Of a stretch of DNA of 64,000 nucleotides, positions 4,085-31,841 are shown piece by piece (position 1 is the first letter of the stretch; every line of letters starts with the position of its first letter). The notes under the pieces were generated by a model, which had not been told where the DNA came from, ran no database searches, and worked only from the letters and a program-made list of their open reading frames with translations. Location of the stretch: the IMG/VR virus record IMGVR_UViG_3300031994_000022; one strand, 5' to 3'. A program made the position numbers and the translations under genes. This stretch comes from a virus. Taxonomy: Duplodnaviria > Caudoviricetes.

Positions 4085-4702
4085 ATGAGCCAATTCTGCG
4101 GAAAATGTGATTTCTACGACGGCTTTGTCGCTATCGGCGGAGAAGGTGATGAGAAAAAGGTCGAAGAAAATCTAAAAAAACTAAAACTCTACATCTACGG
4201 TAAAGATGGAAGAGACCATAGAGTAAAGTCGGATACGATTAAAGATATAGCTAAGTATTATCCATATCTAGAAGGTTGTGCAGCTTACAACAGAGAGACT
4301 GGATATAATATACTTCTTTCTTCCGATTCTTTCATTGATCAAGAAGAGCGTGAACATGTCGGATGGTATGTCAAAGAAGTATATAAGTACTGGCGTAAGT
4401 GCAAGCGTATTAAGAAACCGTTTGTAGTTGATGAATGTGTAAAAGCACTTAGTTATTGGACTAACACGGATATTCTCCGTACTATAGCAGAGCGTGTTGC
4501 TACAGACGGTAATAAAGCTGAATTTGATGATATACATCTATCTCTACATGAATATTACCGGAGGCGGTGGTTTGATGAACTAGTACGGTTAGGCTATTCG
4601 GAATTCGAGGCATACAATTGGTGCTTCAAAGGTCTTTTCGATAGTGAAGAAACGGTAATAGAAAGGTTAGGAAGACCATTAAATATACCTGAAAAGGTAT
4701 AA
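4085..4702 (+). CDS. Hypothetical phage protein
   Basis: AAGGAG RBS, 205 aa, N-terminal SQFCGKCDFYD. Confidence 0.75.
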   Translation: MSQFCGKCDFYDGFVAIGGEGDEKKVEENLKKLKLYIYGKDGRDHRVKSDTIKDIAKYYPYLEGCAAYNRETGYNILLSSDSFIDQEEREHVGWYVKEVYKYWRKCKRIKKPFVVDECVKALSYWTNTDILRTIAERVATDGNKAEFDDIHLSLHEYYRRRWFDELVRLGYSEFEAYNWCFKGLFDSEETVIERLGRPLNIPEKV

Positions 4703-25750: not shown

Positions 25751-25802
25751 AACTTGACTTTTCATTTTGCTTGCATATAATTACCTTAAAGGAGGTGGTT
25801 AT

Positions 25803-26987
25803 ATGTTCAAAGAAGAAGATTTACCCAAACTCCCATATGGCGAGGGGAAGATGCATATCTATAATGACAAGTTGATTGTGTATAAAAAGGTCATTAATCT
25901 TCCTAATGGCAGAAAAGTTCGTAAAGCTGTATATGACGAAACACCTAAAAAATGTATGGCTAAGATGAGAGAAGCTGAAAAAGAATTATTAAAGACCAAT
26001 AAGAATACAAAAAATATAGTTCTGATCGATGGCATAATGCAATGGTTGGAACTTACTCATAAACAAACCATCAAACCTCAATCATATCAGAGACTTATTG
26101 GTACGGCTAAAAATCAGATAGAACCATCAGATATTGGTCATTTATACTATCAAGACATTTCTTCCGATGAGATTCAATTAGTTATCAATCAATTGAATGA
26201 ACAAGGATTGTCACATTCATCTATAAAAAAAGCATACAATTTATTAGGAGCTTTCTATAAACATGTTAGTTTACGAGATGGTTTTCCGAATCCCATGCTT
26301 ATGGTAACCATGCCCCGTGTTTCAAATATCCTTGCCGAAACAAAAGATGTTGAATGGTTTGAGGAAGATGATATTAATAAATTCATTCAAGCTTGTAGTG
26401 CAAGTTTTGCCAATGGTAGATTAAAATTCAAATATGGTTATGCTCTGGCTGCAAATATATTCTTAGGATTAAGAGGTGGGGAGTTACTTGCCTTACAGTG
26501 GAAAGATATAGATTTAAACAAAGGTACGGTTTATGTCTGTAAAACACTTATTGAATATCGAGACATTGATCATAATAAAACACACTTTGAAGTACAGATG
26601 TCTACAAAACGTGATAAAAACCGATATGTACCTATCAACAATAAAGCCAAGGAATTATTAAAACTACATTATGAAAATGCTGAATTCAAAGAACCGGATG
26701 ACTTTGTGATATGCACAACAGGACGAAAATCCAATACATTAAAAAATCTATCTGATATGATAAAGAAGATAGAAGAGGAAGGTGAAACTTCTGTTCGTGC
26801 TCACAATACCCACATTTTACGCCACACTTGTGCTTCCTTATATTTCCGAGCTGGCGTTCCGGTGGAAGTCATATGTAAAATCCTTGGCAATAGTAGAGAG
26901 GTATGTGAAAAGACATATATTCATTTTGTTGAAGAGCAGTTACAGAATGCTGCTACTCAAACAATTAAAGCTATAGACTTTTTCTAA
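25803..26987 (+). CDS. int: Tyrosine integrase
   Basis: GLRGGELLALQWKDID, K, HILRHT, LGN, TYIH; AAGGAGG RBS; TTGACT-16-TATAAT promoter 25754-25781. Confidence 0.93.
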   Translation: MFKEEDLPKLPYGEGKMHIYNDKLIVYKKVINLPNGRKVRKAVYDETPKKCMAKMREAEKELLKTNKNTKNIVLIDGIMQWLELTHKQTIKPQSYQRLIGTAKNQIEPSDIGHLYYQDISSDEIQLVINQLNEQGLSHSSIKKAYNLLGAFYKHVSLRDGFPNPMLMVTMPRVSNILAETKDVEWFEEDDINKFIQACSASFANGRLKFKYGYALAANIFLGLRGGELLALQWKDIDLNKGTVYVCKTLIEYRDIDHNKTHFEVQMSTKRDKNRYVPINNKAKELLKLHYENAEFKEPDDFVICTTGRKSNTLKNLSDMIKKIEEEGETSVRAHNTHILRHTCASLYFRAGVPVEVICKILGNSREVCEKTYIHFVEEQLQNAATQTIKAIDFF

Positions 26988-27026: not shown

Positions 27027-27227
27027 AATTACTTCGCTAAAAGAAGTGTTTAAAACTTTACATATATTTTCTATATATTCTGGTGGTGTTATTAGGTCAC
27101 CTCTGAGCAGTCGCTCAATATCATTCTCCTTATAATTCAATTTTGTTGCAAGAGTGGATGTGGTCATTCCGGCTGCATCCATTTTTTGTTTTAGGACGTT
27201 ACCTAGCTTTACCGAAAATCTTGCCAT
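27009..27227 (-). CDS. XRE-family HTH protein
   Basis: LGNVLK...GMT...LA.KL.Y....IERLLRG...IC.VLN; ATG overlaps upstream TAA. Confidence 0.75.
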   Translation of the reverse strand: MARFSVKLGNVLKQKMDAAGMTTSTLATKLNYKENDIERLLRGDLITPPEYIENICKVLNTSFSEVIRAAVK

Positions 27228-28063
27228 TATGCTGTCCTCTTCCAACAATAATAATTAATATACGGAGGCATTGTATCTATGGTGACATTCCCACCAGTAA
27301 AAGTATGGGTGTGCCCTTTAGAACCACCAACAGAAGTTGTGGTTTTTTCTGGAATAGTCACAGAGTGTTTATGATTCCCATTACTTCCAGTATTAAACGC
27401 CCCATAATATCCTTTCCATCCAGCACCATTTTCACTCGATTCACTTCCAGTTCCACTACCATACCAATTAGGATAATTATAACTATGTGTATGTGCACCA
27501 GTTTCAGAAGTATTAACACTAAATTGATTTATTTTATGATTATGTCCGGGAATTTGATCAAGACTAAGGGTAGTAGACGCAACAGTACCACTTACTTGTT
27601 TAGTATCGGATCTTTTTCCTCCCGTTCCTTCTACTGTATCTCCATCACCCATAGCATATATGAAACTATTCTTAATTCTTACCCAAGTTGTACCTTCCCA
27701 TCCTGGTAATGTTCCAGGGTCTGTTGGATCTGATGACCAATATAATGATCCAATAGGGTGGGCGATATCTATTAACTCGCTAAGTATTGTTTTTGTACTT
27801 TCGTTTTGATTTTGAAGATACTTTGTATTATTAAAAGTTGTTGTCATCTTAGAAACAAGTTCACTCATACCAGTTGGCTGAGTACTAACATCATCATATG
27901 TATCATCCCACTCAGTCGCTTCGGCTAAAGTATGCTCGTTATTAACTATATCCGTTGCCAAATCTACTGTGTCCGTATTCGTCCACTCAGATACAAGAGT
28001 ATGGTCTCCGTTGGCATCGGTGATATATTTTTTCTGTTTTCTTATTCCACTTAAAATACTCAT
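27227..28063 (-). CDS. Tail/baseplate protein with gp10 C-terminal-like (tail collar/short fibre) domain
   Basis: HPIGSLYWSSDPTDP...G.TW, L..DQIPGHNH, H.H repeats, MPPYINYYCWKRTA. Confidence 0.8.
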   Translation of the reverse strand: MSILSGIRKQKKYITDANGDHTLVSEWTNTDTVDLATDIVNNEHTLAEATEWDDTYDDVSTQPTGMSELVSKMTTTFNNTKYLQNQNESTKTILSELIDIAHPIGSLYWSSDPTDPGTLPGWEGTTWVRIKNSFIYAMGDGDTVEGTGGKRSDTKQVSGTVASTTLSLDQIPGHNHKINQFSVNTSETGAHTHSYNYPNWYGSGTGSESSENGAGWKGYYGAFNTGSNGNHKHSVTIPEKTTTSVGGSKGHTHTFTGGNVTIDTMPPYINYYCWKRTA

Positions 28064-28148
28064 TTTATTGTCTCCTTTCGTATAATAAATTATAAAAACA
28101 TAGCAATATACTTAATCTTGTTAAGTGCATTGCTATGTATTTACTGTG

Positions 28149-28421
28149 CTAAACTCTAGAATAATATTCGATACTGTTGTACTGAGTCTAAGTTCACCCA
28201 CAGCTATCGCTAATGGATATGCTTATACAGTACCATATTCATCATATGCGAAAAATGGATATGTTGTTACTATGGCGTTTCTCAAATGGGGGCAAGGTAG
28301 TGTTCCAGCAATGCTTAGTTTTGAAGGCGGTGATCCTACTCAGGGTTTAAGAGTTTGGAGACCTACGAATCAGTCCGGCTCTTGGGGGTGTCAAATTACA
28401 ATCTTGTATGTCAAAGCCTAA
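28149..28421 (+). CDS. Silent tail-fibre tip cassette 1
   Basis: Begins in frame at CTAAACTCTAG (LNSR), 90 aa, no RBS. Confidence 0.8.
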   Translation, partial: LNSRIIFDTVVLSLSSPTAIANGYAYTVPYSSYAKNGYVVTMAFLKWGQGSVPAMLSFEGGDPTQGLRVWRPTNQSGSWGCQITILYVKA

Positions 28422-28430
28422 TAAGATGAA

Positions 28431-28712
28431 CTATTCTCTAGAATTGGCGATTTATGCGTTATGGAATCTTATCCTTTTAGTTTTACAATCAATGCAAACG
28501 CTAAAGCCGTATATAAGATTGCAAATAATGTTACTAAATCTGGATATACTATAGCCGCAATTTGGATTAATCATACATCAACAAATGTTCTGCAATGCAT
28601 AACTTCTGCTGTTTTATACAGTGGTGCAGAATTACATATACAATATTTGAATATTGCAAATGCACAATATACATTATCGGGTACTATTAGAATATTATAT
28701 GTGAAGTCTTGA
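28431..28712 (+). CDS. Silent tail-fibre tip cassette 2
   Basis: Begins in frame at variant site CTATTCTCTAG (LFSR); ends ILYVKS like cassette 1 ILYVKA. Confidence 0.75.
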   Translation, partial: LFSRIGDLCVMESYPFSFTINANAKAVYKIANNVTKSGYTIAAIWINHTSTNVLQCITSAVLYSGAELHIQYLNIANAQYTLSGTIRILYVKS

Positions 28713-28778
28713 TGATATCATAAAGTTAAGATTAAGATGAGTGATGCATACCGTCAGACTACTATTTATGGTAATTAA

Positions 28779-29054
28779 TTAAGCATCCTCAACCCTGCAA
28801 ATAACATTACATACCAAAACGTGCCCAGATACAAACCCAGAACCCCACGCAGAGAATGTCATAGTATCTGTACCGCTACCCGAATCTTGTGTTAACCTAG
28901 TTACTTGAGTATACGGAGTACCTGACGTCGAAACCATACTTATTACTCCATCGTGTAATTTGTGCCCAGTTAACTTAACACTTCCGGTAAGTTGAGTTGA
29001 AGATTTATATGACATAGTAATTCGTCCTACATAAATGTTGTATCTAGAGTTTAG
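28779..29054 (-). CDS. Silent tail-fibre tip cassette 3
   Basis: Begins in frame at CTAAACTCTAG (29054-29044), LNSRYNIYVGRITMSYK. Confidence 0.8.
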   Translation of the reverse strand, partial: LNSRYNIYVGRITMSYKSSTQLTGSVKLTGHKLHDGVISMVSTSGTPYTQVTRLTQDSGSGTDTMTFSAWGSGFVSGHVLVCNVICRVEDA

Positions 29055-30035
29055 TTAAGCTACCAATTTTCTATGTGCATTTTCGACATCTTTGTTATCT
29101 ACCGACACATATATCATTGTTGTATTGATATCCTCATGCCCAAGTATTTGCTGTATTATTTGCACCGGAGCATTACGCTTTGCCATATCACTTGCAAGAG
29201 TGTGTCTAAACTTGTGAGGATGTGCATATACCCCAGCTTTCCTACCTAAATTCCTTATGATCATTTCTATACCATTCTTGGTTAATTGCCCACGTTTACC
29301 ATACCATAACGATACATCGGTATCTGTCCTCGTCATCAAGTATTTCTCCAACCAATACATACATTTGTCTGAAATATAACATATTCTTTCCTTGTCACCT
29401 TTGCCGTGTTGTATTCGCACAGTACCCTGCTTGAAATCTATATCAGATAAAACAATAGCCGAGCATTCTGACACTCTACATCCAGTAGAATACAGAAACT
29501 CGACTAAAGCTCTATCTCTATATGTGTCGCAAGCGGAACAAATCTGTTCCATCTCACGCTCAGTAAAAGGTTTCACTTGTCTTTTCTGATGCTTAAAAGG
29601 ATTGATTCTAAGCATCGGATTATCTGTGATGTATCTCTCTATACTCAACCACTTGAAGAAACTACTATAAGCTTTTCTCATGTTATCTAAAGTAGCATTA
29701 CTAACACCACGAGTTACTTGCCATAATGCCAGATGATGGCGTATATCATCTGTTGTAATATCCCAGATATTCTTACCGACATCATCCAGCATTCTCTGTA
29801 TTGTCTCGCCGTAATGCTTAATCGTTCTCTTACTACATCCCTCTATAGCCTTACTACCAAGGAAGTTCTTCAGTAGAATATCATTGCTCTTGTCTATAAC
29901 CGTAAGCTCCGTCGATTTCTTCTCAATGGTATAGTCATACAATATCACATCAAGAGTAATAGCCAACATATCCAACTGTTCCTTGTCGAGCTTAGTTGCC
30001 ATTTTCTGTAGTATAACCATTCTTAATTCTTCCAT
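29055..30035 (-). CDS. Tyrosine recombinase (shufflon invertase)
   Basis: STGCRVSE, GKGDKER, HKFRHT, LGHEDINTTMIY; sits among the cassettes. Confidence 0.92.
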   Translation of the reverse strand: MEELRMVILQKMATKLDKEQLDMLAITLDVILYDYTIEKKSTELTVIDKSNDILLKNFLGSKAIEGCSKRTIKHYGETIQRMLDDVGKNIWDITTDDIRHHLALWQVTRGVSNATLDNMRKAYSSFFKWLSIERYITDNPMLRINPFKHQKRQVKPFTEREMEQICSACDTYRDRALVEFLYSTGCRVSECSAIVLSDIDFKQGTVRIQHGKGDKERICYISDKCMYWLEKYLMTRTDTDVSLWYGKRGQLTKNGIEMIIRNLGRKAGVYAHPHKFRHTLASDMAKRNAPVQIIQQILGHEDINTTMIYVSVDNKDVENAHRKLVA

Positions 30036-30090
30036 ATATTTTTCTCCTTTTTATTTTTATTTTAGCAAAATAATAAGGAGATATTGTGAA

Positions 30091-30414
30091 CTAAACTCTA
30101 GCTTAACATATAAATCAGTAAGTAATCTATTCAGCATTAAGAGTACTTACACTTCGGTGATGGAGATTACTAATCAAACTGCATATCGTGTAGGTAATAT
30201 CATATATGTATATTTAGAATTACATAAATTAGGGACTATAGCCAACGGAGAACACGATATGATTCAATGCTCCATAACTCCCAAAACTGTATCAGTATTT
30301 AACAAATTCCACGATGATTATGGATTAATAATTCAAACAAACAAAAATGGAAAATTTCAACTTGGCTCTCAAAATCGAGCTTGGTACACGCTGTCAGGAT
30401 ATATTTTGGTGTGA
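30091..30414 (+). CDS. Silent tail-fibre tip cassette 4
   Basis: Begins in frame at CTAAACTCTAG (LNSS); YRVGNIIYVYL fibre-tip-like strand. Confidence 0.8.
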   Translation, partial: LNSSLTYKSVSNLFSIKSTYTSVMEITNQTAYRVGNIIYVYLELHKLGTIANGEHDMIQCSITPKTVSVFNKFHDDYGLIIQTNKNGKFQLGSQNRAWYTLSGYILV

Positions 30415-30506
30415 TTATATGTTAGGGTTGTATATGTAGATATTCTCTAGTGAAAACTAAGATGAGTGATACATATAAACAGGTTGCCATATACGGAGTT
30501 AATTAA

Positions 30507-31841
30507 TTACCAATCTTGTGCGCATATCCAACAAAATCTGACACTTCCAGATATGTTATTACCAACTAGATTAATTTTAATCGCAGAAGAAGATGCGTCA
30601 AAATCATATTGCATGGCACATTTTTGAGATTGACAAGTTAGAATAAGTACTTCGGGGCGTTTAGTTATACCAAAAGTTGAAAATGGTATCGATGCCGAAC
30701 CGCTTGTAAATGTATAAATTGTAGATGACATTTTAAATCTAGCATGACCAGTTGGAGAACCATTAAGATAAGTCAAGGCGACTTCTTTTCCGATCTTACT
30801 AGAGTTTAGTGAAGAAATCGCATCCTTGAGAGATGCGTTCGTACCGTCCCATGTATCATCTTGAAAATAAATATTTTCTGGTGTTATATTTATACTCGCC
30901 GTTCCCATTGTTTGACTATTGTTCTTAACTGTCAAAATAGGTTCGTAGAATGCTGCACCGGAATATTGTTGTCCTCCTACAATGGTTAACGCTCCTCTAG
31001 AACCATCGTATTTTAAACCAGTATATTCCGCAGTATCAGGGTTACCAATAGTTAAACTTCCAGCTAACCATTCGTTACCACTCCAATCAAGTGTACGAGC
31101 ATTAGACTTTGCAGATGAGCCTGTACCATTGCCGACAATCTCTACATAATTACCCCTTTCGGTAGTAGCAGCAGTTGATGGATCTTCTATGTTGTGTTCA
31201 CCAAATACATGTTGTGATGCATGATTTGCGGTTGTAAATAAACCTTCTGCATGGCTATAATCGCCACTTGCACGTGTACTACGTCCTTCTGCAACAGAAT
31301 AATCACCGACAGTACTTGCATATAATCTCTTCCCAAAAGTAAAAGCTTTTTTATTAGGATTATATGTAAAATACTGTGATTTTCCAACACCTTCAGTTTT
31401 AGTTGTTGTTCCAGTGCTTCCAGCAAATGTTACTTCATATTCAGCATTTGTGGTAACTTCCGTCTGTGTAACATTAGTATCAGTATTACGTTCAAAGTAT
31501 TCATTCATACACCAATTCGTTCCATCATAAGTAAAAGAAACTACTTGTCCATTATTCCAAGTAGGCTTTTTAGTTAATGTCATATTTCCTGATGTATGAG
31601 TACCTACCGTAATAGATTTTGCACCTGTATTATTTACGTTTAGCGTAGGTGTGACATCTCCGGTATATTGATAAGTAAATTTAACGTGTATTGTTACGCC
31701 AGTTAATAACTGGTCAAAGTCAGCACAAGTTACTACCTTCGCTGCAGTACTTGCATCAGTCGAACAAGTACCATATAGTGTAGAACCGACAGGACAACCG
31801 GTATTTCCGGAAGTGTCAGTTATTTTTCCTACATAACTCAT
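30507..31841 (-). CDS. Tail fibre / receptor-binding protein with switchable C-terminal 100 aa
   Basis: GTCST...AKVVTC, TLNVNNTGAK, FTYDGTNW, YadA-like ASGDYSHAEG repeats; site CTAAACTCTAG at 30809-30799. Confidence 0.88.
   Translation of the reverse strand: MSYVGKITDTSGNTGCPVGSTLYGTCSTDASTAAKVVTCADFDQLLTGVTIHVKFTYQYTGDVTPTLNVNNTGAKSITVGTHTSGNMTLTKKPTWNNGQVVSFTYDGTNWCMNEYFERNTDTNVTQTEVTTNAEYEVTFAGSTGTTTKTEGVGKSQYFTYNPNKKAFTFGKRLYASTVGDYSVAEGRSTRASGDYSHAEGLFTTANHASQHVFGEHNIEDPSTAATTERGNYVEIVGNGTGSSAKSNARTLDWSGNEWLAGSLTIGNPDTAEYTGLKYDGSRGALTIVGGQQYSGAAFYEPILTVKNNSQTMGTASINITPENIYFQDDTWDGTNASLKDAISSLNSSKIGKEVALTYLNGSPTGHARFKMSSTIYTFTSGSASIPFSTFGITKRPEVLILTCQSQKCAMQYDFDASSSAIKINLVGNNISGSVRFCWICAQDW

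Follow-up and report, generated by a model that had tools for sequence, protein, structure and literature searches.

A tail-fibre locus of a large sheep-gut phage that very probably works as a phage-encoded shufflon

What purpose might be served by four copies of one 11-bp sequence that lie in both orientations around the end of a phage tail-fibre gene and a recombinase gene? The question is raised by a stretch of 64,000 nucleotides from the IMG/VR virus record IMGVR_UViG_3300031994_000022 (hereafter the window, or W), where the fibre gene is followed by several silent cassettes that could serve as alternative ends for the same protein. We conclude that the locus is very probably a phage-encoded multiple-inversion system (shufflon), which changes the C-terminal tip of the tail fibre, and that the switch is real, given that related phages carry the same tips in different slots. 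The elements on which the argument rests are listed below in fibre direction, with protein lengths in amino acids (aa).

30507..31841, minus strand: fibre gene, an open reading frame of 444 aa in which site A is codon 345
30810..31841, minus strand: constant part of the fibre, codons 1-344
30799-30809, minus strand: site A, exact CTAAACTCTAG, the expression site, fibre-gene codons L345-N-S
30507..30798, minus strand: tip0, the tip expressed in the window, 100 codons counted from site A
30091-30101, plus strand: site B, exact CTAAACTCTAG
30091..30414, plus strand: site B with the silent cassette tip4, 107 codons
29055..30035, minus strand: shufflon recombinase, a tyrosine recombinase of 326 aa between sites B and C
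29044-29054, minus strand: site C, exact CTAAACTCTAG, directly after the recombinase stop codon
28779..29054, minus strand: site C with the silent cassette tip3, 91 codons
28431-28441, plus strand: variant site E, CTATTCTCTAG, with two core bases changed
28431..28712, plus strand: variant site E with the cassette tip2, 93 codons
28149-28159, plus strand: site D, exact CTAAACTCTAG
28149..28421, plus strand: site D with the silent cassette tip1, 90 codons

The sequence CTAAACTCTAG occurs exactly four times in the window, always inside the same 2.7 kb and nowhere else in the 64 kb, against a mean of 0.04 copies expected by chance in dinucleotide-preserving shuffles, none of which (0 of 100) reached four. 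A scan that allowed up to two mismatches remained at chance level apart from the clustered CTATTCTCTAG at 28431 (+). Along the window, the four exact copies and the variant are oriented +, +, -, +, -, and the locus accordingly has what characterizes a shufflon, at least three short sites in both orientations at one place. All five copies are read in one register, CTA-AAC/TTC-TCT-AGn (L-N/F-S-S/R, with Leu-Asn-Ser in the exact copies), and open frames of 100 (A), 107 (B), 91 (C), 90 (D) and 93 (E) codons stand behind them. Only the copy at 30809 has a long in-frame open reading frame upstream, which is the fibre gene (codon 345), and the silent cassettes have no in-frame start upstream. The sites are in frame, and the alternative 3′ segments can be fused to one constant 5′ part of a gene.

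The strongest indication that such fusions have taken place comes from the comparison of the window with five related metagenomic contigs (L008, L009, L061, L063 and L064). The locus itself is present in L008 and in L009-L012, the contigs of the closest fibre relatives. In these contigs each of the four sites A to D keeps the left flank that it has in the window, but the cassettes that follow have traded places, and the order breaks precisely at the 11-mer. For the window and L008 the slots are occupied as follows.

Slot A: tip0 in the window; a new 140-aa tip in L008
Slot B: tip4 in the window; tip1 in L008
Slot C: tip3 in the window; tip4 in L008
Slot D: tip1 in the window; tip0, silent, in L008

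In BLASTN alignments the flanks of the window and L008 are colinear at 96-99% identity, every breakpoint lies on the 11-mer, and the A-B module of the window recurs in L008 in the opposite orientation, at 99.86% identity, in the interval from C to D; the remaining difference of 0.14% indicates that the move was recent. To turn the window order into that of L008 takes an A x D, an A x B and a B x C inversion, three in all. Other cassettes behave in the same manner: tip4 occupies slot B in the window, C in L008 and D in L061, and a tip0-like cassette that is silent at slot C in L009 is expressed at slot A in L064 (92% nucleotide identity). W, L008 and L009 agree completely in the left flank of site C but have three different cassettes behind it, and in the six contigs taken together 16 right flanks are found on five classes of left flank. 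In L063 (ENA ERZ27291683 k119_572650; protein P0002) tip0 is expressed, at 96% amino-acid identity and with the same junction, as the end of a 596-aa fibre with a shaft of only about 66% identity, which means that tips are exchanged between different fibres. Rearranged forms with breakpoints at the sites exist between all these related contigs (W, L008, L009, L061, L063 and L064), and the reading of the locus as a shufflon, advanced in a preliminary description of the sequence, gains its main support from the same cassettes standing on different fixed flanks. The exact site-C junction has no match in IMG/VR and in the metagenome collection was matched only by the L008-type contig, and a DNA search of the phage collection returned only short, unrelated matches to a neighbouring gene. 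As a separate observation, site D of L008 (L008:11857-11867), which precedes the silent tip0, carries a point change, CCAAACTCTAG, that may weaken that site.

How the permuted orders could arise becomes clear from the enzyme and from the geometry of the sites. A site-specific recombinase is encoded within the locus, and its protein comprises core-binding and catalytic domains only, with PF00589 at 2e-42 and an N-terminal SAM-like PF13495. The best NCBIfam match is the XerA-type NF040815 (238.5 bits against a cut-off of 220); no Rci-specific NCBIfam match to it was found, the best matches being Xer-type. By sequence, it is an armless, Xer-like tyrosine recombinase. The catalytic set R187, K212, H274, R277, H300 and Y309 is invariant in the alignment, and the protein is 99% conserved across lineages whose fibre shafts are just 71% identical. 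It has no arm-binding domain and is distinct from the phage integrase of 406 aa, which is encoded separately. This recombinase is probably the enzyme acting on the sites. Its gene has a leader of 55 bp and no promoter-like site of its own; consensus promoter scans gave results at chance level and are not used as evidence.

In fibre direction the order is shaft, site A (forward), module S1, site B (reverse), the 55-bp leader, the recombinase gene, site C (forward), module S2, site D (reverse), a hairpin with a T-run and the next tail gene. Module S1 (A-B) contains tip0 and tip4 tail to tail, module R (B-C) contains the recombinase gene, and module S2 (C-D) contains tip3, tip2 behind the variant site E, and tip1. 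The four canonical sites point alternately in one direction and the other. Recombination of A with B, C with D, B with C or A with D therefore always inverts the DNA in between, and each such event leaves the alternation intact. It follows from this geometry that there are 16 arrangements and four expressible tips from the four canonical sites; S1 and S2 are each able to occupy either outer position in either orientation, and the recombinase module can flip. A single inversion is enough to reach cassettes 1, 2 and 4, which point opposite to the fibre site, whereas cassette 3 has the orientation of that site and takes two, C x D followed by A x D. The proposed mechanism is that the armless Xer-like recombinase would act on every pair of oppositely oriented sites, the four pairs named above, and that each inversion involving site A would fuse the constant shaft in frame to another tip, since all sites share the same codon register and lie at the neck before the tip domain. 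Much of this had already been proposed from a first reading of the DNA, and it holds: the 11-mer at four positions with one variant, in the same register and ahead of open frames, is borne out by the coordinates, the frame reading and the shuffles; the tyrosine recombinase in the middle of the locus by its domains; and the numbers of inversions, as well as the flipping of the recombinase gene by some events (A x D and B x C), by the geometry of the sites.

The connection between the enzyme and the sites can be followed further, to recombinases that are only 36-38% identical. Such proteins are encoded on two IMG/VR contigs (L002 and L003), in a prophage of Lachnoclostridium sp. An138 (L014) and in a Merdimonas metagenome-assembled genome (L015). 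The same four-site layout (+, -, recombinase, +, -) is present in L002, L003 and L014, where the site is 17 bp long, is read Q-N-S-K, in the frame that is used in the window, and has the core AAAYTCTA in common with the site of the window; L015 has three copies of a related site around the recombinase. Between L002 and L003 the C-D module is inverted at 98% identity. The site changes along with the enzyme while the layout stays, and this ties the recombinase to the sites. The An138 prophage (NZ_NFLF01000010.1), which belongs to a cultured strain, has its sites at 4155, 4936, 6089 and 6900, and its expressed gene faces the recombinase from the other side. In two phages of cultured Clostridia, Terrisporobacter phage TPELB_ph1 (L058) and Clostridium phage phiCp-D (L059), the last tail gene is immediately followed, ahead of the holin, by a gene for a 30-35% related 'integrase', and TPELB_ph1 has a second integrase elsewhere; no convincing repeated sites were found in either, and they are not counted as shufflons.

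These observations also bear on a different explanation of the permuted orders, according to which general or phage-encoded homologous recombination between co-infecting relatives exchanged the tips, the 11-mer being only a run of conserved neck codons and the recombinase having another role, such as dimer resolution. The Xer-like character of the enzyme is compatible with this, the cassette pairings within modules do vary between relatives, and short relic cassette 3′ ends (described below) could supply the homology. Nevertheless, 11 bases are too few for efficient exchange, and the flanks in the six contigs have no conserved position outside the 11-mer other than a T at -4. Furthermore, an entire module has turned round and gone to another slot, as is characteristic of site-specific inversion, and in the 37% identical relatives the site has changed together with the recombinase, while the four-site layout around the gene is kept. 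Homologous recombination as the sole origin of the pattern is thus considered hardly credible.

Several observations nevertheless weigh against the shufflon as we describe it. Eleven conserved bases are short for the site of a tyrosine recombinase. Among the assemblies found, no two arrangements were seen within one lineage, sample or population; all four contigs with the exact recombinase of the window show its order, and the order of the L009 type is shared by at least four samples. The recombinase module (29055-30090) is co-directional with the fibre gene in five lineages of the clade (window, L008, L009, L063 and L064) and antiparallel to it in the three distant relatives checked; it is co-directional in all five, although the exchange of S1 and S2 requires flipping it. 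Finally, the partner of tip0 at slot B is an L009-type cassette in L063 and tip4 in the window, and as such differing partners are impossible by inversion at the four sites A to D alone, other recombination also shapes the locus.

One arrangement per lineage may mean that switching is rare or that selection fixes one state. It could also mean that the shufflon is a fossil, rearranged in the past, now effectively locked and only storing paralogous fibre ends, and the changed site of L008 (CCAAACTCTAG) points in the same direction as the single arrangement found per lineage across several assemblies and samples. A decayed system is, however, difficult to reconcile with a recombinase that is 99% conserved, with all catalytic residues, across lineages with 71% identical shafts, with four perfect sites in the window, or with an A-B module whose move, at 0.14% difference from the L008 copy, is recent. 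We regard a locked locus as very unlikely; switching is probably still ongoing in present populations. With respect to the orientation of the recombinase, whose gene is itself an invertible module, it could be speculated that the switch is self-timed: late read-through transcription would supply the enzyme, lytic replication would be the time at which the tips change places, and phages with the flipped gene would be short-lived intermediates or would be removed by selection. This proposal is doubtful, but it would account for a gene that has to turn and is found in one orientation.

How many tips can be expressed? The preliminary description counted five, of which four stand. The fifth, tip2, lies behind the variant site E, which follows the tip1 stop in the window as well as in L008, its left flank being the same in the two. 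The cassette after E is tip2 in the window and a different one, tipX (108 aa), in L008, so that E marks a breakpoint as well. On the other hand, the two changed core bases of E may limit its pairing with the canonical sites, and a longer protein or a fibre ending in a tip2-like domain was searched for and none was found, although this is weak evidence. Four tips are certain, and a fifth is possible only if E is also used. Two short relic cassette ends, KIKMSDAYRQTTIYGN and KTKMSDTYKQVAIYGVN, stand after the tip2 stop (28728-28778, +) and the tip4 stop (30453-30506, +). Both match the C terminus of tipX, the cassette that E precedes in L008, which suggests that newer cassettes were put in front of an older one.

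What would the exchanged part of the fibre do? The fibre gene lies within the tail module, downstream of the tape-measure gene, and the 444-aa protein has thousands of relatives carrying tail-fibre-type domains. With its closest relatives the similarity is confined to the N-terminal 77-79% (97% identity for P0001, over its N-terminal 79%, and 71% for P0003). In an AlphaFold2 (AF2) model, residues ~365-444, which belong to tip0, form a confident beta-sandwich (predicted local distance difference test, pLDDT, ~80-87) after a low-confidence stretch. The helix 336-346 ends at site A, ahead of this C-terminal beta-sandwich, which places the site at the neck just before the tip domain. Foldseek with the fibre model returned weak matches only, to phage tail fibres and H-type lectins (best E-value 0.011), and the lectin identity of the modelled tip is a lead only. 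Apart from the tip0 pair, no similarity is detectable between the tips. Considering their position and fold, it is assumed that the tips set host specificity and therewith host range.

Among known systems, the preliminary description drew an analogy with the R64 shufflon, which holds, but the closest precedent is a phage system, the Rin shufflon of Bifidobacterium breve and Bifidobacterium longum prophages, which is phage-encoded and proven active (Mavrich et al. 2018; PMC6109161). Rin uses an armless XerD-like tyrosine recombinase, separate from the phage integrase, and asymmetric 11-bp rix sites before start-less variable C-terminal cassettes of a receptor-binding tail protein; the cassettes are very dissimilar, and the arrangements differ between related prophages (PMC6109161). 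Compared by published description, the present locus resembles Rin in its phage-encoded armless recombinase, 11-bp sites, start-less dissimilar cassettes and orders that vary among relatives. Three differences are evident. First, the site is TTCCCTAACCC there and CTAAACTCTAG here; second, the Rin recombinase flanks the array, whereas here it lies inside the array between B and C, away from its edge, and is invertible; third, the present host of the system is a ~142-kb sheep-gut phage and not a Bifidobacterium prophage. In BV01-like phages of Phocaeicola vulgatus, a 2026 preprint describes an active tail-fibre shufflon with a 10-bp directional motif and three cassettes, which gives six variants differing in stop positions, all configurations being present in reads (PMC13596623). 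Both systems have a short directional motif, a recombinase close by and several non-homologous cassettes that overlap a tail-fibre gene at its 3′ end, whereas phage, host and motif differ, and the proof there is at the level of reads, the evidence here being a comparison of contigs.

The R64/IncI1 plasmid shufflon consists of the recombinase Rci, 19-bp sfx sites and the pilV gene; rci lies outside the invertible segments, and the target is a pilus adhesin. In Komano's work on R64, only inversions and not deletions are reportedly kept. A tyrosine recombinase, multiple inversions, short asymmetric sites and a constant N-terminal part with alternative C-terminal adhesin tips are shared with R64, but the target here is a phage tail fibre instead of a plasmid pilus adhesin, and the recombinase is inside the array. 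Gin, Cin and Min of Mu, P1 and p15B are serine invertases that depend on an enhancer and Fis. There, too, inversion swaps the C-terminal part of a phage tail fibre and gives alternative host ranges; the enzyme of the present locus, in contrast, is a tyrosine recombinase and not a serine invertase.

Tyrosine-recombinase shufflons acting on phage receptor-binding proteins are thus already known, and the locus adds an instance and anatomical detail, not a new principle. It illustrates, nonetheless, how some 2.7 kb of DNA may allow a large phage of the gut or rumen to hedge its host range. The tip repertoire of the small clade sampled comprises at least 12 unrelated types, which are exchanged also between phages with different shafts. 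The layout with the recombinase in the middle, as present in cultured Lachnospiraceae prophages, offers a tractable system for studying the inversion-over-deletion bias of armless tyrosine recombinases.

The surroundings of the locus contain the following further features.

28093..28143, minus strand: hairpin followed by a T-run, just outside site D, an inverted repeat with an RNA fold of -20.7 kcal/mol (z = -4.1)
27227..28063, minus strand: Gp10_C-like tail gene, fixed and outside the shufflon (PF21939 at 9.6e-9; PHROG tail protein families)
25767..26987: the separate integrase, 406 aa

The hairpin forms a terminator-like boundary of the shufflon, and the Gp10_C-like gene is at the same place in L008 and L009. 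Other genes of the window encode a DnaB-like helicase, a DNA polymerase, NrdD, a tape-measure protein and minor tail proteins. A recombinase identical to that of the window is encoded on a contig of 142,577 bp, and metagenomes, those of sheep gut among them, are the source of the related contigs; the window belongs to a large tailed phage of ~142 kb from the sheep gut. A terminator scan also detected a hairpin with a 7-bp stem at 30819-30837 (-), within the fibre coding sequence and 9 nt upstream of site A, which may be incidental.

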